A stretch of 64,000 nucleotides of DNA from positions 107,324,001 through 107,388,000 of the forward strand of contig NC_086107.1 in assembly GCF_963921235.1 (NCBI RefSeq). The letters run 5' to 3'. Positions 41,309 to 55,155 of this stretch are shown piece after piece. Each line of letters begins with the position of its first letter. The stretch's first letter is position 1. Source of the DNA: Mobula hypostoma (taxonomy: Eukaryota). Below the pieces are notes generated by a model. That model saw only the letters and a program-made list of their open reading frames with translations. It was not told the DNA's origin and searched no databases. The position numbers and the translations under genes are program-made.

Positions 41309-43834
41309 AACCTACCAACTGGCACGTCTCTGTGGGAGGAAACCGGAGCATCTGGTAGGAAATCCACACGGTCACAGGGAGAACATACAAACTCCTTACA
41401 GGCAGCGGCGGGAATTGAACCTGGGTCACTGGAACTGCTAAGCGTTGTGCTAAGCATTAGGCTAACATTACAAAACTGGAGTAGTGTTGGTTGGTGCAAT
41501 GAGTGAACGTGACTTCGGGCACAGACAGTGGAGCACTGGGTGAGTCAAGTTTAAGCAGTCCAGTGTAATAGGTAGACCAAGATGTAATGTGAGTGCAAAT
41601 GCAAAGGAAGATTTGCATCTGTACAAATACTATCAGCCTTCTCAGTACATGAACGTGGTTTGTGACCAATCATCAAAGATAAGCGAGCGATTACTCCTTG
41701 TGTCCATGGGGCAACTGGGCTGAAGGAGCCACCTCCTTCTCACTTATGAGAGAGAGAGAGAGAGAGAGAGCGCCTGTGGTATGTGGAATGCCGGGTGAAA
41801 CGCGAAGTCTTTGGGGGAACTGCAAGTCTGTGTCTTTGCTGTTGCTTTGCTCACACTTGAGTGCTCGGTGGTGGGTGCTGATGCTTTTTTTTTGCCGGTG
41901 GGGGGGAGGGGGGATCATTGCTTGCTGTCACTTAAGCGCGGGAGAGAGGGGAGCTGGGGGGACTTTGGGGTTCTTACGTTTGACTGTCGTTCATTCTTTG
42001 GGGCACTCCTCTGTTTTCGTGGATGATTGTGAAGAAAAAGCATTTCAGGATGTATATTGTATACATTTCTCTGACATTAATTTGCAACTTTGAACCTTTA
42101 ACTGCTCATTTCCATATTGTACATTCTAAGGCAGAGGATGAATGAGATGGTCCCAGGTCTTTCTCCAGCAACTAAGCAACCATTCCTGTTATTACGTTAA
42201 TAGAACATAGAAATCTACAGCACATTACAGGCCCTTCGGCCCACAATGTTGTAACCTACTCTAGAAACTGCCTAGAATTTCACTACCGCATGGCCCTCTA
42301 TTTTTCTAAGCTCCATGTATCTATTAAAAGACCCTATTGTATCCCCCTCTACCACCTTCACCGGCAGTGCATTCCACACACTCACCACTCTCTGTGTGAA
42401 AAACTTACCCCTGACATCTCCCTTGTACCTACTTCCAAGCACCTTCAAACTATGCCCCTTTGTGTCAGCCATTTCAGCCCTGGGAAAAAGCCTCTGGCTA
42501 TCCACACAATCAATGCCTCTCATCATCTATCAGGTCACCTCTCATCCTCCGTCGCTCCAAGGAGAAAAGGCCAAGTTCGCTCAGCCTACTCTCATAAGGC
42601 ACACTCCCCAATCCAGGCAACATCCTTATTAATGGTGGAACCATAGTAGTGGTTAGTGCATCGCTTTCCACCACTGTCTGTGAGGAGTTTGCACGTTCTC
42701 CCCGTGACAGCAAGAGTTTTCTCCTACTGCTCGAGTTCCTCCCCCACCCCCCCGATTCCAATTACGTACAGGCTAGGATTAGTAAGTTGTAGAAATGTTG
42801 GCAGAGGTGTGGCGACACTTGCGGGCTGCCCCCAGATCATCCTCAGACTGTCTGGACCGTTGACGTAAGCAACGCATTTCACTGCATGCTTCGATGTTTT
42901 GATATGCATGTGACACATAAAACTTAGTCCCATCTGGCACCAATCAGTCATTCCAGGGGCTTGACATCAGCTCGTGATTCTACGTCCAAATGGATAGTTG
43001 TAACATTGTTGTGATCCTGTTACTGCATTATTAAATCAGAGCTCTGGACTAATTGAAAACAAGTTGCCTGTTCCTCTAGCAATAAGATTAGGGCAGATTT
43101 TGGCACAGCTCCATTTTCCAGCCTGTTTCCCATAACCCTGGACTTTCCCCCCCGCAACCCTCATAGATCAAAAATCTCCCTGTCTGACTCTTGAATAGTT
43201 TCAGTGCTCTTCCTTCATAGCTTCATAGCCTCCTGGGGTAGAGAATTCCAAATGCTCGCGAGCCCGTTTTAAATGGGAGATCCCTTATTGTAAACTCTGC
43301 CCCCTTGTTCTTGATCGGGTAACCAGGGCAACATCATTGCACCATCTGACAAGCCAGAGGGCTAATGAGTTGAAATGTTACAACAGCAGTTGGAGAATCT
43401 GAAAGCTGCGGTCATTAAATGTGATTTAGATTCTGCCAGATTGTCATAGAATCATATTTGGTTTAGGAAGAGAAAGATTATCTGGTTTGAGCTGATTCTA
43501 TTCCCAGGTTAACGCAAGTAACTATCGAATATCTGCTGAAGGGTAATGTTGATGAATCAGACGGGTATCAGAGAAATTTCTTGGTCTTCAGTGCTCTCTC
43601 ACCAAATTTTAAAAAAAGCTGTAAGTGCAAATCCATAAGACACTTGGAGCAGAATTAGGCCATTTGGGCCATTGAGTCAGTTCCGCCATTCCATCATGCT
43701 AATCCTCTCAATCCCATTCTCTTCCCTTCTTCCCATAAACGTTGACACCCTTACTAATCAAGAACCTATCGACCTCTGCTCCAAATATACCCGGTGCTAT
43801 TAAACCTCATTCTGATGAACAGGAGTTATCCACG

Positions 43835-44312
43835 GTCAGTCAGTCAGTGGTGCCGTCACACATCTGGGGTTGGCGGCTATGCACCTTCATCTTCTTCGAT
43901 CTTGCGACAGCACCGAGTACAGCCTCTCCTCCAGTTTGTTCTCGCTGGCCGCCTTGGCACCGCCCACTGCCACCCCCTGCCGAACTCGAGCCCGAGGCCG
44001 TGTCGGCCTCCAGCCGCGGCTGCTTCTTCGAGCTCGGCCCTTCCTTAGGCGGAGGCCTTGGGCAGGTCCAGGCACACGGTGCAGCGCCCAAGTTCATCAT
44101 ATCTCTTCTAACTAGGTGCATAGCATACGATTCGTAGATACGTGGTGAGGCTTTAATCTCTTCCACGGAAGATGGCCATTGGCTCACAAGGAGATCAGCC
44201 GCCCTTTGTCAGGTCTTGTTTTTTTTAGTTCTGCTGGGTGTCCTCACACCCTCCTCACCAGGCTAAGTCCGGTGGGGGAGCCGGCCCAAGTCGCCGACCA
44301 CTCACCATGCCC
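43835..44312 (-). mobile_element. Short RTE-derived non-autonomous element hosting a captured gene fragment
   Basis: Minus strand encodes HLVRRDMMNLG before and QDRRR after the insert (RTE ORF C-terminal VxxDMxxLG...AQDRxxW motif); (ACTG)n tail. Confidence 0.6.
43907..44085 (-). pseudogene. CYHR1: Circularly permuted 179-bp fragment of the CYHR1/ZFTRAF1 first coding exon
   Basis: Minus strand: 44085-44050 encodes [11 protein letters not shown] and 44049-43907 encodes PKEGPSSKKQPRLEA...[12 protein letters not shown] (one frameshift). Joining the two outer ends restores [22 protein letters not shown], recalled from CYHR1/ZFTRAF1. Confidence 0.85.
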
Positions 44313-44486
44313 ACCTGGTCATTATTGATAAGTCTATCAATATTAATGATAACGGATTATCATTACCACTGGTTGTGGGAGCTTGCTGTGCACAAATCCT
44401 TGCTAAGTTTCACACAAGAATACTCCTTTGGGGTTAAGTGCTTTGGAGCTCCCTCAAAGGGAGGTGAATGGCACTATAGAAATGTA

Positions 44487-46377: not shown

Positions 46378-48429
46378 TAGATTATAGAGTCATTCAGCAC
46401 TGTTGGCCCAATGGTCCATGCTGACCAATATGCCCTTCCGAGCTTCTTCCATTTGTAAAGAATTGGTCTGCAATGCTCTACAGTGTTCCTATCTATGTAC
46501 ATGACTAACTATCTTTTAAAAGTTGTTATTCTACCCAACTCAATCACATAGATACCTTCCTTTGTATAAAATAAGTTGCCCCTCAGTTCCTTTTAAACCT
46601 CTGCCACTGTCACCTTAATCCTATGCCCTCTGGATCTTGATTCTCTAACCTTGGGAAAAGGATTGAGTGCGTTTACCCTATCTCTATCTCTCAGTATTTT
46701 ATACACCTCTGTAAGATCACCCTTCGTTCATCTAATCTCCAAAGAGTTAATCTTCGAGTGGGACTTTTAACGACCACTTTAGAGTGTGTTGGTTTACAAA
46801 AGATGAAAACCCTGACAGTACAACACTCCCCTGGCACCGCGCCGGAGTAACAGCCTGGATTTTTGTGGTCCAGCACAAGCCTTTGCACTTCTATCGATGT
46901 GTAGTGGAGAATATGTTGACTGGCTGCATCACAGTCTGGTACAGAAACACCAAAGCCCTAGAATGGAAAATCCTACAAAAAGTAGGGAATATGGCCCTGC
47001 CCGTCATGGGTAAAGCCCTCCCCTCCATTGAGCACATCTGCACAGTGTTGTTGTAGGAAACCAGCATCCATCATCAAGGCCCTCCACCACCCAGGTCATG
47101 ATCTCTCCTCTCTGCTACCATTAGTAAGAAAGAACAGGAGCGTCAGGAATCACACCACCAGAAACAGGGACAGTTATGACCCCTCAGTCATCAGGCTTTT
47201 GAACCAAAGGGTATAACTTCACTCGCCTTCACTATTCTCATCATTGAACTGTTCCCACAATCCATGGACTCACTTTCGAGGACTGTTCATCTCATGTTTT
47301 TGATATTTATTGCTTACTTATTTATTATTTATTTCTTTTATCATTTGTAAAGTTTGTTGTCTTTTGTACTCTGGGTGAAAGCCCAAGTTGGTGTGGGCTT
47401 TCATTGATTCTATTATGGTTATTATTCTATTATGGATTTATTGAGTATGCCCGCAAGAAATCAAATCTCAGGTTTGTATATGGTGTTATATATGTGCTTT
47501 GATAATATATCTACTTTGACTTTTAACTTTAAGATTTGAACCCATGATGTCCAGCTCGGAGGTGAGAGAGGGGGCATAGCTAACGGAGAAGAAAGCAAGT
47601 GACTGTGTTCCCTTAAATGACTGAAGCTGAGAAACTATTCAGCTGCATAATCAAAGATACTAATTCCACAGGGAGAAGCAATCCTGGACCACAGCTTAAA
47701 GATTCCGATCTATCCCAATTAGAAGCTGTCTCTCAAAAAGCCTGCAGCCTGACAAGGTTGCTGACACAGGGAGAAAATGATCATTCATATTCGCTGCAGC
47801 GCTCTCCCTCTCTCACACTCGCTTATGCTCTTTGTTTCAATTAGTGGCCAGAAGACATCTAGCAGAACAGAAAGCTGGCCACTGTTGGTTACTCCACTCA
47901 ACACCCAGATGTGTGAACAATATGACTGCGTGAACAATATGCCCCCGTGGACCAATTCTTGGTCAGAGGGAAACCACAGAGAGTGCAGGAGCTTTGCGCG
48001 GGTATAAACAATCCTTGGTCGAGATCGTCTTTGTGGAAAATAGAAAGCCCTGCTCTCGAATAGGAAATCTCAGCTCCCCCAATGTGAAGCTTGTAGGCAT
48101 ATAAGATAGAGAGTTTTACCAGAAGCTTGGAGACACTAAGCCTACAGCCACCCTGGAGAGCCCGTAGCCAGTAAAATTTTCCAAGAAGCTTGGAACCGTT
48201 CACTGTTCTGCTTTTAACCCTTTCTATACTTTTTCTAAAGATTTGGCAATTTATTGGTAGTCGGATACTTTGTGCCAGAGTGAGAAGTGGAAACATGTGC
48301 CTTCCCAGTGTTACTGTCTACCAAGGGTGGGAAAGGGTATTGGTTCAAGTGAACTCCAGAAACAGAAACTGTGGCTAAGAGCATTGTTGGGAAGGTACAG
48401 TACTGAGGACATAATGTATCATCTGGGGG

Positions 48430-49332
48430 ATGGTACTGAGGGAGTGTCACATTGTCAGAGGGACAGTACCGAGGGAGTGTCACACTGTCGGAGGGACAGT
48501 ACTGAGGGAGTGCCTCACTGTCAGAGGGACGGTACCGAGGGAGTGTCACACTGTCGGAGGGACAGTACTGAGGGAGTGCCTCACTGTCAGAGGGACGGTA
48601 CCGAGGGAGTGTCACACTGTCGGAGGGAAGGTATCGAGGGAGTGTCACACTGTCGGAGGGACGGTACCGAGGGAGTGTCTCACTGTCGGAGGGACGGTAC
48701 CGAGGGAGTGCCTCACTGTCGGAGGGACAGTACCGAGGGAGTGTCTCACTGTGGGAGGGACGGTACCGAGGGAGTGCCTCATTGTCGGAGGGACGGTACC
48801 GAGGGAGTGTCTCACTGTGGGAGGGACGGTACCGAGGGAGTGTCACACTGTCAGAGGGACAGTACTGAGGGAGTGTCTCACTGTCGGAGGGACAGTACTG
48901 AGGGAGTGTCTCACTGTGGGAGGGACGGTACCGAGGGAGTGTCACACTGTCAGAGGGACAGTACTGAGGGAGTGTCTCACTGTCAGAGGGACAGTACTGA
49001 GGGAGTGTCACACTGTCAGAGGGACGGTACCGAGGGAGTGTCTCACTGTCAGAGGGATAGTACTGAGGGAGTGCCACACTGTCGGAGGGACGGTACTGAG
49101 GGAGTGTCTCACTGTCAGAGGGACAGTACCGAGGGAGTGTCACACTGTCAGAGGGACAGTACTGAGGGAGTGTCTCACTGTCAGAGGAACGGTACTGAGG
49201 GAGTGTCTCACTGTCAGAGGGACAGTACTGAGGGAGTGCCACACTGTCGGAGGGACAGTACTGAGGGAGTGTCACACTGTCAGAGGAACGGTACTGAGGG
49301 AGTGTCACACTGTCAGAGGGACAGTACTGAGG
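48430..49332. repeat. 33-bp minisatellite (GAGGGAGTGTCACACTGTCAGAGGGACAGTACT), ~27 copies
   Basis: Directly visible tandem array; 11-aa periodicity in ORFs 48235, 48270 and 48430. Confidence 0.97.
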
Positions 49333-49389
49333 TAGAACTGCACCATCAAACTCACACGATTGAGCAATAGCTGTAGTGTTCAAACAGCA

Positions 49390-49640
49390 GCTTTCACATG
49401 AACGTTAATCCAGCTCCCTATCTGTTCTTTCAGTTGAAGTACGAACTCCCCATGCCCTTACTTTGAAAATGTCTCAGAGCCAACACTTATCCCTCAGTCA
49501 CCATCCTGAAACAGATGGTCTGGTTGTTGTTGTTTGTAGGACCTTGCCACATGTACAATTCGGCTGTCACATTCTCTATATTGCAATAAAAAAATCTTTA
49601 TTGTTTCTAAGCCACCACAGGAGTCCCTGAGATATGATAT
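49390..49640 (+). mobile_element. Degenerate Deu-domain SINE (SacSINE1/AmnSINE-related) 3' part
   Basis: CCAACACTTATCCCTCA...AAACAGATGGTCTGGT...TGTTTGTAGGACCTTGC resembles the recalled Deu-SINE consensus; related remnants near 31885, 34100, 44355, 45175, 46780 and 57540. Confidence 0.6.
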
Positions 49641-50239: not shown

Positions 50240-51128
50240 GAAGAATGAAAGATGGGGAAGGATTTGAAGAATGCTTGTAGCTTCAGTTGAAAGACCAGTA
50301 ATTTGAAAGACAAAGGGGTGGGGGAGAGGAAGCATTAACGTCATAACCCTGAAAACAATGGGTGGTAGAAGGAGGAGGCGGAACCATGAGGGAGCTGGGG
50401 GAGGGGGTAGAGTGAAATAGGGATAGAGGAAGGGAGGGGGAGGGAATTACCGGAAGTTGGAGAATTCTATGTTCATACCAAGGGATTGGAGACTACCTAG
50501 ACGGTATATGAGGTGTTGCTCCTCCAACCTGTTTAGCCTCATCATGGCAGTAGAGGAGGCCATGTATGGACATATCTCCAGGTGAGGCAACACTTCACTT
50601 GTGAGTCTGTTGGGGTCATCTATTGCATCCGGTGCTCCCGGTGCGGCCTCCTCTACATCGGTGAAACCCGACGCAGATTGGGGGACCACTTCGTCGAGCA
50701 CCTCCACTCCGTCCGCCAAAACAGACAGGATCTCCTGGTAGCCACCCACTTCAACTCTGCTTCCCATTCCCATTCAGGTATGTCCATACATGGCCTCCTC
50801 TACTGCCATGATGAGGCTAAACTCAGGTTGGAGGAGCAACACCTCATATACCGTCTAGGTAGTCTCCAGCCCCTTGGTATGAACATAGAATTCTCCAACT
50901 TCCGGTAATAACTTCTGGTAATTACTTCCCCCTCCCTTCCCCTATCCCTATGTCACTCTGCCTCCTCCCCCAGCTCCCTCATGGTTCCGCCTCCTCCTTC
51001 TACCACCCATTGTTTTCAGGGCTATGAAGTCATTGCTTCCCCTTCCCCACCCCTTTGTCTTTCAAGTTACTGGTCTATCAACTGACGGTACAGGCATTCT
51101 TCAAATCTTTCCCCATCTTTCATTCTTC

Positions 51129-51164
51129 AGTCCTGACGAAGGGTTCCGGCCCGAAACGTCAACT
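51129..51164 (+). ncRNA. Minimal type I hammerhead ribozyme motif with a stem I mismatch next to the cleavage site
   Basis: AGTC CTGACGA A GGGTTCCGGCCC GAAACGTC AACT. Confidence 0.65.
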
Positions 51165-51745
51165 CATCATTTCTAACTGATGCTGCCCGACCTGCTGAGT
51201 TCATCCAGTGTACTGAAAGTGTTGCCTTTAGATGTTTCAGCTTCCCAATCACCTTCCCTCTAGTAATAGCAATTGCATTCACTTATGCCCGCAGACATTC
51301 TTGATCTTCCAGCATCTTGCTAATGTCTTCCACAGTGAAGGCAGATGCAAACTACTTATCTAGTTTACCCGCATTTCCTTGCCCCTCCCCCACTACTACC
51401 ACTCCAGCATCATTTTCCAGCAATGCGATATCTACTCTCACCTTTGATATTATAATAACATACTTTGATATTATTGGCTAGCTTACCTTCATATTTCATC
51501 TTTTCCCTCCTTATAAGACCATAAGATGTAGGAGCAGAATTAGGCCACTTGGCCGATTGAGCCAGCTCCGCCATTTCAAAGAACATAGAACATAGAATAG
51601 TACAGCACAGTACGGGCCCTTCGGCCCACAATGTTGTGCTGACCCTCAAACCCTGCCTCCCATATAAGCCGCCACCTTAGATTCCTCCATATACCTGTCT
51701 AGTAGTCTCTTAAACTTCACTAGTGTATCTGCCTCCACCACCGAC

Positions 51746-54538
51746 TCAGGCAGTGCATTCCACGCACCAACCACTCTCTGAGTAAAAAAACCTTCCTCTA
51801 ATATCCCCCTTGAACTTCCCATCCCTTACCTTAAAGCCATGTCCTCTTGTATTGAGCAGTGGTGCCCTGGGGAAGAGGTGCTGGCTATCCACTCTATCTA
51901 TTCCTCTTATTATCTTGTACACCTCTATCATGTCTCCTCTCATCCTCCTTCTCTCCAAAGAGTAAAGCCCTAGCTCCCTTAATCTCTGATCATAATGCAT
52001 ACTCTCTAAACCAGGCAGCATCCTGGTAAATCTCCTCTGTACCCTTTCCAATGCTTCCACATCCTTCCTATAGTGAGGTGACCAGAACTGGACACAATAC
52101 TCCAAGTGTGGCCTAACCAGAGTTTTATAGAGCTGCATCATTACATCGCGACTCTTAAACTCTATCCCTCGACTTATGAAAGCTAACACCCCATAAGCTT
52201 TCTTAACTACCCTATCCACCTGTGAGGCAACTTTCAGGGATCTGCGGACATGTACCCCGAGATCCCTCTGCTCCTCCACACTACCAAGTATCCTGCCATT
52301 TACTTTCTACTCTGCCTTGGAGTTTGTCCTTCCAAAGTGTACCACCTCACACTTCTTCGGGTTGAACTCCATCTGCCACTTCTCAGCCCACTTCTGCATT
52401 CTATCAATGTCTCTCTGCAATCTTTGACAATCCTCTACACTATCTACAACACCACCAACCTTTGTGTCATCTGCAAACTTGCCAACCCACCCTTCTACCC
52501 CCACATCCAGGTCGTTAATAAAAATCACGAAAAGTAGAGGTCCCAGAACAGATCCTTGTGGGACACCACTAGTCATAATCCTCCAATCTGAATGTACTCC
52601 CTCCACCACCACCCTCTGCCTTCTGCAGGCAAGCCAATTCTGAATTCACCTGGCCAAACTTCCCTGGATCCCATGCCTTCTAACTTTCTGAATAAGCCTA
52701 CCATGTGGAACCTTGTCAAATGCCTTACTAAAATCTATATAGATCACATCCACTGCACTACCCTCATCTATATGCCTGGTCACCTCCTCAAAGAACTCTA
52801 TCAGGCTTGTCAGACACGATCTGCCCTTCACAAAGCCATGCTGACTGTCCCTGATCAGACCATGATTCTCTAAATGCCTATAGATCCTATCTCTAAGAAC
52901 CTTTTCCAACAGCTTTCCCACCACAGACGTAAGGCTCACTGGTCTATAATTACCCGGACTATCCCTACTACCTTTTTTGAACAAGGGAACAACATTCACC
53001 TCCTTCCAATCCTCCGGTACCATTCCCGTGGACAGCGAGGACATAAAGATCCTAGCCAGAGGCTCAGCAATCTCTTCTCTCGCCTTGTGGAGCAGCCGGG
53101 GGAATATTCCGTCAGGCCCCGGGGACTTATCTGTCCTAATGTATTTTAACAACTCCAACACCTCCTCTCCTTTAATATCAGCATGCTCCAGAACATCAAC
53201 CTCACTCATATTGTCCTCACCATCATCAAGTTCCCTCTCATTGGTGAATACCGAAGAGAAGTATTCATTGAGGACCTCGCTCACTTCCACAGCCTCCAGG
53301 CACATCTTCCCACCTTTATCTCTAATCGGTCCTACCCTCATTCCTGTCATCCTTTTTTTCTTCACATAATTGAAGAATGCCTTGGGGTTTTCCTTTACCC
53401 TACTCGCCAAGGCCTTCTCATGCCCCCTTCTTGCTCTTCTCAGTCCCTTCTTAAGCTCCTTTCTTGCTTCCCTATATTCCTCAATAGACCCATGTGATCC
53501 TTGCTTCCTAAACCTCATGTATGCTGCCTTCTTCCTCCTGACTAGATTTTCCAACTCACTTGTCACCCATGGTTCCTTCACCCTACCATTCTTTATCTTC
53601 CTCACCGGGACAAATTTATCCCTTACATCCCGCAAGAGATCTCTGAACATCGACCACATGTCCATAGTACATTTCCCTGCAAAAACTTCATCCCAATTCA
53701 CACCCGCAAGTTCTAGCCTTATAACCTCATAATTTGCCTTTCCCCAATTAAAAATGTTCCTGTCCTCTTTGATTCTATCCTTTTCCATGATAATTATAAA
53801 GGCCAGGGAGCGGTGGTCACTGTCCCCCAGATGCTCACCCACTGAGAGATCTGTGACGTGACCCGGTTCATTACCTAGTACTAGATCTAGTATGGCATTC
53901 CCCCTGGTCGGCCTGTCCACATACTGTGACAGGAATCCATCCTGGACACACTTAACAAATTCTGCCCCATCTAAACCCTTGGAACTAATCAGGTGCCAAT
54001 CAAGATTAGGGAAGTTAAGGTCACCCATGATAACAACCCTGTTATTTTTGCACCTTTCCAAAATCTGCCTCCCAATCTGTTCCTCTGTATCTCTGCTGCT
54101 ACCAGGGGGCCTATAGAATACCCCCAGCAGAGTAACTGCTCCCTTCCTGTTCCTGACTTCCACCCATATTGACTCAAAAGAGGATCCTGCTACATTACCC
54201 ACCCTTTCTGTAGCTGTAATAGTATCCCTGATCAGTAATGCCACCCCTCCTCCCCTTTTTCCTCCCTCTCTATCCCTTTTAAAGCACTGAAATGCAGGAA
54301 TATTGAGAATCCATTCCTGCCCTGGTGCCAGCCAAGTCTCTGTAATGGCCACTACATCATAATTCCATGTATGTATCCAAGCTCTCAGTTCATCACCTTT
54401 GTTCCTGATGCTTCTTGCATTGAGGTACACACATTTCAGCCCTTCTACCTTACTGTCTTTACACTGTTTATTCTGCTTCTCTTTCCTCAAAGCCTCTCTG
54501 TATGTTAGATCTGGCTTTACTCCATGCACTTCTTTCAC
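51746..54538 (-). pseudogene. CR1 ORF2 (AP endonuclease + reverse transcriptase), frameshifted near ~52640 and ~52300
   Basis: YLNARSIRNK, ITETWL, GDLN, LDLV and SDH (APE); KSPGPDG, NYRPVSL, QHGF, DFSKAFD, GVPQGSVLGP and KFADD (RT); spread over ORFs 52646-54538, 52307-52612 and 51746-52279. Confidence 0.93.
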
Positions 54539-54573
54539 TGCTCTATCGCTCTGGGTCCCATCCCCCTCGTAAA

Positions 54574-55155
54574 TTAGTTTAAACCCTCCCGAACCATGCT
54601 AGCAAACCTACCTGCAAGGATATTGCTCCCTCTCGAGTTCAGGTGCAACTCATCCAATCTGTACAGGTCCCACCTTCCCCAGAAGAGATCCCAATGATCT
54701 AAAAATCTAAAACCCTGCTCCCTGTACCAACTCCTCAGCCACGCATTCAACCGCCATCTCCTCCAATTCTTACCATCTCTGTCATGTAGCACTGGCAGCA
54801 ATCCTGAGAACATCACCCTTGAGGTCCTGTTCTTCAGCCTTCTGCCTAATTCCCGAAACTCACACTTCAGGACCTCATCCCTCTTCCTGCCTATGTCGTT
54901 GGTCCCAACATGTATCACGACTTCTGGTTGCTTTCCCTCTCGTACCAGGATATCGTGCACCCGGTCAGAGACATCCCGGACCCTGGCACCCGGGAGGCAA
55001 CAAACCATGCGCGTATCCTTCTCACATCCACAAAATCTCCTGTCTGCTCTCCTGACTATAGAGTCTCCAATGATGACAGCTCTCCTCTTCTCTGTCCCAC
55101 CCTTCTGCACCTCAGGGTCAGACTCAGTGCCAGAGGCCCTGCCACCGTGACTCAC
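54574..55155 (-). CDS. CR1 ORF1 SGNH/GDSL esterase domain (partial)
   Basis: IIGDSIVR, CLPGA, IHVGTND and DELHLN blocks. Confidence 0.9.
   Translation of the reverse strand: MSHGGRASGTESDPEVQKGGTEKRRAVIIGDSIVRRADRRFCGCEKDTRMVCCLPGARVRDVSDRVHDILVREGKQPEVVIHVGTNDIGRKRDEVLKCEFRELGRRLKNRTSRVMFSGLLPVLHDRDGKNWRRWRLNAWLRSWYREQGFRFLDHWDLFWGRWDLYRLDELHLNSRGSNILAGRFASMVREGLN

Follow-up and report, generated by a model that had tools for sequence, protein, structure and literature searches.

The window analysed here, a stretch of 64,000 nucleotides from Mobula hypostoma (C45:107324001-107388000 of the 3.48-Gb assembly), contains a 178-nt piece of ZFTRAF1 exon 1 whose two halves stand in swapped order. 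Judged from its sequence, this permuted module is a fixed, founder-derived part of a non-autonomous, SINE-like retroposon family with a 572-nt consensus. How the exon piece was captured can be stated with much less assurance. The reading that we prefer, and to which we give an even chance of being right, is that the reverse transcriptase of a LINE switched from LINE RNA to ZFTRAF1 RNA and travelled exactly once round a 178-nt template that was closed or bridged at its ends, the resulting chimera then becoming the SINE-like master.

The Copy in the Window

On the minus strand of the window segment B comes first and segment A follows, and the order described in the original prediction is reproduced from the sequence. 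Both segments lie within an element copy at 43836..44315 (minus strand), a SINE-like, 5'-truncated copy that spans positions 92-572 of the 572-nt family consensus and is 95.6% identical to it over 482 columns (BLAST on the window). Its 5' limit is approximate, and a few more bases may belong to it beyond 44315. Read on the minus strand, the copy begins with the 5' part of the element (44086..44315, consensus 92-322, placed from the consensus and alignments), which opens with bases from the 3' arm of the long hairpin at the family's 5' end. Segment B (44046..44085, minus strand) comprises 40 nt that correspond to ZFTRAF1 coding bases 284-323 in exon 1, and its translation is the peptide at the RING start. 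Segment A (43907..44045, minus strand) corresponds to coding bases 146-283, also in exon 1. The copy ends with a LINE tail (43836..43906, minus strand) formed by the last 22 codons of the ORF of a partner LINE and an (ACTG)n repeat.

The earlier observation that A can be joined to B without gain or loss of a base stands, the last base of A being the neighbour of the first base of B in the gene. The limits first assigned to the segments require adjustment: their order is correct, but B extends 4 nt further, to 44046, and A starts at 44045. Similarly, the length of 179 bp describes the window copy but not the family. The permuted unit measures 178 nt in the consensus and in the gene; segment A is 138 nt long in the consensus, whereas one inserted, frame-shifting base brings it to 139 nt in the window copy. 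The proposal that a circle was integrated at this site is not sustained, since the window holds an ordinary 5'-truncated copy of the family.

Just 3' of the element, window 43600-43800 (minus strand) resembles what we take to be a common elasmobranch interspersed-repeat tail (...aatggcctaattctgctcc...). The window opens with a pyrimidine-rich tandem array (1-981; 50-nt period, about 19 copies, 93-96% matches), which is also readable with a 154-nt period and which accounts for the GC skew of -0.92 in the first kilobase. At 48433-49332 a 33-nt unit is repeated in tandem 27 times, without indels and at 89% matches; the long open frames that run over it (48235-49404 on the minus strand, 48261-49370 on the plus strand) are probably repeat artefacts. 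The GC skew is negative, at -0.35 to -0.41, across about 4 kb at 51000-55000.

The Source Gene

The source of the module is ZFTRAF1/CYHR1 at locus L042 of the same genome (contig C5, minus strand), and the sequence matches identify the L042 gene as the donor. Exon 1 of this gene starts with an ATG and has 109 codons; its coding part runs to base 327 and ends in VYQ, after which the sequence GTACAG follows. Homologues read on as ...VYQCTNGH, which confirms the end of exon 1 at VYQ. A search with the exon protein gave 76 matches at E <= 0.001 among 8000 scored, and those that bear names are nearly all ZFTRAF1 or CYHR1. The best homologue is that of a sawfish (78% identity, E = 1.4e-39); a catshark shows 77% identity and two skates 72% each, and many tetrapods match the exon's last quarter at 100% identity. 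When the 47-aa translation of segment A alone was used, the protein search returned no match.

The discovery of L042 and the names of its homologues thus bear out exon 1 of CYHR1/ZFTRAF1 as the source. At this locus segments A and B adjoin exactly, A before B, as the original prediction had anticipated for CYHR1 exon 1. That prediction was to be given up if no CYHR1 match existed or if a tandem AB-AB duplication lay at the source locus; L042 is such a match, and the locus in its present form has a single A-B and then an intron.

An A-B-A-B allele or retrocopy of the exon, since lost, could have been the template for a B-A stretch and would place B before A without any circle. The genome was searched with a 27-mer pattern consisting of the last 26 bases of A followed by any base except C, with up to 2 mismatches. 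There were 646 matches genome-wide and 0 with the reversed pattern as control. In the 38 exact matches the next base is T in 35, G in 2, and A in 1, and inspection of the G and A cases identified L039 and L048 as repeat copies and L042 as the real gene start. Only L042 (1 of 38) continues as the gene does. This locus has a single A-B followed by the intron, and the length of exactly one unit would have to be a coincidence; we regard a lost tandem template as very improbable.

The Repeat Family

The 572-nt consensus was built from an alignment of fetched copies. It consists of a long hairpin (consensus 1-125), a stretch for which no matching source sequence was found (126-322), segment B (323-362), segment A (363-500), and the 3' end of the RTE-like LINE (501-572; 72-74 nt) with its (ACTG)n tail. 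The element is short (572 nt) and has no reverse transcriptase of its own. Genome-wide, the 231 bp around the module yielded 944 first-look candidates, and all 40 candidates that were scored matched at full length with 94-100% identity, on many contigs. A 31-mer of the 5' part has 705 matches with up to 2 mismatches, and 0 in the reversed control. The family comprises at least 650-700 copies, or roughly 10^3. Among 80 distinct sampled copies, 75 give a single colinear match through the 5' part, B, A, and tail; of the remaining 5, some are truncated and some broken up by indels, and a copy without the B-A order was not encountered in the 80.

The same arrangement in hundreds of copies on many contigs rules out an assembly chimera. 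Chance similarity is ruled out likewise, since the consensus agrees with the gene of the same genome at 175 of 178 bases (136 of 138 in A and 39 of 40 in B). An artefact or accident of either sort would also have to account for the two sets of pattern matches (646 and 705, against 0 in the reversed controls) and for the near identity of 40 of 40 scored copies, and it can be dismissed for practical purposes.

Copies of the family behave as products of retroposition. Full-length copies share their start base and their (ACTG)n end. L018, L020, L036, and L044 lie between target-site duplications of roughly 8-16 bp, and the 5'-truncated copy L039 has one of about 16 bp. The 5' extent varies among copies, as expected of LINE-driven insertion. 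On average, copies differ from the consensus by 4.2% outside CpG sites and by 17.7% at CpG sites.

The original prediction spoke of a host element with an insert and suggested that other copies of the host be inspected. Such copies have now been examined, and all of them carry the module. A search for module-less copies, with the 30 bases before B followed by anything but the first three bases of B, found none. It gave 54 matches; the 12 that were inspected all carry B-A, with the start of B mutated or partly deleted, and the others have CpG-decayed B starts. Moreover, the 3' side of the module abuts the start of the LINE homology, so the picture of a pre-existing host into which a fragment was inserted is not upheld. 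Since all copies carry the module, its capture happened once, in the founder of the family. Three diagnostic positions, with T, T, and G in the gene and C, A, and A in the element, also point to one capture, because the element-specific states are near fixation (53, 52, and 55 of 56 copies).

The consensus contains a 122-codon open frame (207-572) in which B is out-of-frame, A is in its native ZFTRAF1 frame, and the tail is in the native frame of the LINE. At least 110 codons of this fusion frame remain open in 24 of 56 copies, and a local, frame-shifted version occupies window 43840-44208 (minus strand). A Pfam search with the 122-aa open frame of the window copy gave no match, and a protein search with the 124-aa open frame of L018, among proteins of 68-217 aa, gave no homologue. 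The fusion frame is probably an accident of the fusion. By word matching only, words of the window copy are found in 20 sequencing-run rows from organisms A-I and 10 studies, with shares of 0.06-0.66; no RNA run is listed among these rows. A literature search for a repeat bearing ZFTRAF1/CYHR1 found none among the papers listed.

The Partner LINE and the Shared Tail

The LINE that supplied the 3' end of the element was sought with the 32 bases that follow A, not preceded by the end of A, with at most 1 mismatch. This pattern has 179 matches, and among the matches listed GAG precedes 62 of the 65 exact ones. In the four LINE copies fetched (L081-L084) the ORF runs into the tail, and its stop codon lies inside (ACTG)n. 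The ORF contains RVT_1 (E = 1e-18). In a near-full-length copy a single frame of about 945 codons, interrupted by one internal stop, encodes Exo_endo_phos (E = 2.7e-7) and then RVT_1. The copies used (L081-L084, L090, and L092) are on contigs C1, C2, C5, and C50.

The RTE clade is marked by a single ORF that encodes an AP-endonuclease and then a reverse transcriptase, by the near absence of a 3' UTR, and by a short tandem-repeat tail. The partner LINE has this domain order, the single ORF, and the tail repeat, and by its architecture it is RTE-like. The homology between the element and the LINE covers 72-74 nt, at 96-97% identity to L081-L084 by BLAST; when the full element is compared with LINE ends, it begins at the first base after A. 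The ZFTRAF1 piece and the LINE tail have the same sense orientation. A search with the LINE protein gave 80,740 first-look candidates; other reverse-transcriptase families are probably among them. A scan for (ACTG)n across the fetched DNA detected the family's own tails only.

The Head of the Element

The 5' end of the element is a near-perfect hairpin of 125 nt, with 57 pairs that include 15 G.U wobbles (11 U.G and 4 G.U); consensus 1-140 has a predicted folding energy of -104.5 kcal/mol. The hairpin is present in full-length copies such as L018, L036, and L044, and the window copy retains its 3' arm only (about 44315-44282). The wobbles are clustered in runs, TTT or TTTT opposite GGG or GGGG. 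The hairpin looks as if a perfect inverted repeat had been altered before amplification, by A-to-G (ADAR-like) or C-to-T changes.

Three full-length copies were scanned against Rfam at E <= 1, and the 2 matches obtained lie beyond the limits of the element. The scan thus detected no head of tRNA, 5S, or 7SL origin, which a strict definition of SINEs demands together with an internal Pol III promoter. Comparison of the 5' part with the last 1085 nt of the partner LINE and with the near-full-length copy revealed no similarity; the idea that the head is the 5' end of the LINE is therefore unsupported in one truncated and one near-full-length LINE copy. A search for a separate source locus of the 5' part gave 22 matches, all with 1 mismatch and all element-like, and a second search gave 0 matches. 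At L091 (C22:63160650-63161449) an element fragment (consensus 116-263, 90% identity) abuts an antisense, gag-like open frame with a capsid/SCAN-like stretch and a CCHC zinc knuckle. L091 was considered as a second family and dropped, since the junction is unique in the genome; it is probably a nested insertion of an LTR-type element. The A-run at consensus 181-188 was considered as a poly(A) module boundary and was likewise abandoned.

The Junctions of the Module

All three junctions, between the 5' part and B, between B and A, and between A and the LINE tail, are blunt. The element bases that flank the two ends of the unit differ from those of the gene, and the unit is therefore exactly 178 nt, with no overlap and no gap. 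Its inner junction (...CTA/AGG...) joins coding base 323 to base 146 of exon 1. There is no filler and no GT/AG alongside, and 0 nt of sequence are shared. The microhomology that had been hoped for as support for a circle is thus absent.

The order of the segments is non-colinear, B-A in the element against A-B in the gene, as in pseudogenes derived from circular RNA. The inner junction, however, does not connect a donor end to an acceptor start, as a back-splice would; it falls 4 nt before the donor site of exon 1. The original prediction had argued that a junction short of the exon end (VYQ) counts against canonical back-splicing, and the measured distance confirms the argument. The unit has 71% G+C and comes from a first exon. 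In the predicted fold of the 178-nt source RNA the ends are not brought together, and a panhandle that would bridge them was rejected, there being no such pairing in that fold.

Origin of the Module

A host piece that lies in sense, without filler, on a 5'-truncated LINE tail, within an element flanked by target-site duplications, favours an origin through reverse transcriptase. The module abuts the start of the LINE homology, which is the layout of a template-switch chimera, and gene piece and tail run in the same sense. Non-LTR reverse transcriptases are described as jumping between templates in the available extract of one account (PMC8857657). That the gene piece amounts to exactly one lap, with blunt junctions, is also accommodated, but an exact single lap implies that the template must close on itself.

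In the template-switch reading, the LINE enzyme would begin by target-primed reverse transcription and copy 74 nt of LINE RNA. It would then switch to ZFTRAF1 RNA at coding base 283, copy back to base 146, and continue at base 323 of the same ZFTRAF1 template. This template may have been circular RNA, closed on itself, or else linear RNA, with base 323 reached by a backward or end-to-end jump; in the linear case, the enzyme would have jumped back into the 40 nt not yet copied and collided with its own RNA-cDNA duplex. Synthesis would end at base 284 on meeting template already paired with the enzyme's own cDNA, and the end of the cDNA would then be joined to the present-day 5' part. The founder locus would have been transcribed and amplified to about 10^3 copies, the family being mobilised in trans by the partner LINE, whose machinery would recognise the shared tail.

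Several points weigh against this reading. The piece lies within one exon, so no splice junction proves an RNA intermediate. On small RNA circles reverse transcriptases can go round several times, and annealed strands are displaced by some non-LTR enzymes; given such enzymes, a halt at the collision point has to be assumed. The predicted RNA fold leaves the ends apart, and an ordinary circRNA offers no explanation for an inner junction without GT/AG. Finally, the 322-nt 5' part matches neither a known source nor the 5' end of the LINE, and no chain of RNA templates can be traced beyond the LINE and ZFTRAF1. The more specific version, in which the founding template was a covalently closed, non-spliceosomal RNA circle from inside ZFTRAF1 exon 1 that was copied in one lap by an RTE-type LINE reverse transcriptase halting on its own cDNA, is offered tentatively and seems to us unlikely, if worth considering.

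A microcircle of DNA could also have supplied the unit. A 178-bp eccDNA from exon 1 would have been cut once and ligated as filler, either at the 5' junction of the 74-nt LINE insertion or at a break in a founder element, and the locus would have become the master copy. Cutting a circle once yields one permuted unit without gain or loss of a base, exactly as seen, and it does so automatically, whereas reverse transcription needs the added stop. The size of 178 bp, the 71% G+C, and the derivation from a first exon fit microDNA, here defined as circles of 100-400 bp from a G+C-rich 5' gene region or exon, and to this extent the original proposal of a microDNA or eccDNA origin retains its force. 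MicroDNA is characterised, in the part of the source available, by lengths of 100-400 bp and by enrichment in 5' UTRs, exons, and CpG islands (PMC9527254). Filler at the 5' junction of the LINE insertion would furthermore explain why the module abuts the tail and why the 5' part looks like anonymous DNA.

The orientation and the position of the unit fit the RNA route. A microcircle would have had one chance in two of ending up in the same sense as the LINE tail, and had it entered a pre-existing element, it would have had to hit the precise tail boundary, a target of about 1 in a few hundred positions. The circle junction lacks microhomology, which is a frequent though not obligatory mark of microDNA/eccDNA insertion; in the portion of the review that was available, the levels of microDNA are reported to depend on microhomology-mediated end joining (PMC9527254). 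Chimeras of host RNA and LINE are common, but the capture of a microcircle at a LINE junction has, to our knowledge, no precedent in the literature. A DNA microcircle in the founder is a weighty rival, though we think it rather unlikely.

The unit might, finally, reflect no closed template at all but two independent switches or rearrangements, made by reverse transcriptase or by copying of the FoSTeS/MMBIR type, with the exact abutment of A and B a coincidence. Double template jumps of LINEs are described, as far as the accessible text goes (PMC2104539), and blunt junctions, which all three are, are common for jumps. The first base of B is, however, the immediate neighbour in the gene of the last base of A; with free end points, such exact abutment is expected by our estimate roughly once in 100 to 200 cases. 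Replicative switching, moreover, usually shows microhomology, and here there is none. Two unconnected events are accordingly judged improbable, and the single lap by a LINE enzyme is retained as the preferred reading.

Relation to Known Elements

The element is a variant that combines two known kinds, the chimeric retrocopy and the LINE-tail SINE. Fusion of host RNA to the 3' part of a LINE by template switching is described in the accessible portions of two reports (PMC2104539; bioRxiv 10.1101/2025.02.02.635956), and known examples include U6/L1 and mRNA/L1 chimeras and a tripartite chimera of Magnaporthe (PMC2104539). The element resembles these chimeras in having a same-sense, filler-free host piece on a 5'-truncated LINE end and in its target-site duplications. 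It differs from them in that the host piece is circularly permuted, amounts to exactly one unit, and is not colinear with the RNA; in that an RTE-like LINE ending in (ACTG)n takes the place of L1; and in that it became a family of about 10^3 copies.

A second comparison is with pseudogenes derived from circRNA. Mouse circRFWD2 has 33 pseudogene copies with one junction (Dong et al. 2016, PMC4897178), and the same authors caution that open-ended RNAs with close ends could mimic circles (PMC4897178). The element shares with such pseudogenes the non-colinear parental order, the retro-copied state, the lack of poly(A), and the many copies of one junction. In contrast to theirs, its junction is not a back-splice, since both points lie inside one exon without GT/AG, and its gene piece belongs to a LINE-tailed element.

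SINEs share 3' tails of roughly 80-100 nt with partner LINEs, often of the RTE clade, according to the available sections of one survey, which gives Bov-tA, Bov-A2, MAR4, and AfroSINE as examples of LINE-tail SINEs or non-autonomous RTE elements (PMC3747384). Like these, the element is short, non-coding, and dispersed, has 5' truncations and target-site duplications, and ends in about 74 nt of the 3' end, with the tail repeat, of an RTE-like LINE. Unlike them, it has no detected tRNA, 5S, or 7SL head, its head is not the 5' end of the LINE, and its body holds a permuted piece of a protein-coding exon.

Reintegrated microDNA or eccDNA, as portrayed in the available part of PMC9527254, resembles the unit in size, G+C content, first-exon origin, and permuted single-unit structure. 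The present case differs in the lack of microhomology at the circle junction, in its site at a LINE tail, in its sense orientation, and in being an ancient, germ-line event amplified by retroposition.

Implications

For annotation, about 10^3 spurious ZFTRAF1-like matches are to be expected in this genome. The inner junction is diagnostic of the permuted unit, and the three diagnostic bases distinguish gene-derived from element-derived molecules.

The route by which non-colinear, circle-like copies of genes enter genomes is unsettled. Because the piece sits flush on an identifiable LINE tail and is preserved in about a thousandfold copies, the founding junctions can be read with confidence, and the case offers a concrete pair of enzyme and template. 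If the template was an RNA circle, the module would be a germ-line fossil of the entry of a circular RNA through LINE template switching, and it would mean that the bodies of SINEs can be built from circular RNAs. The family itself shows that part of a coding exon from a conserved RING gene can be carried within a SINE-like family.
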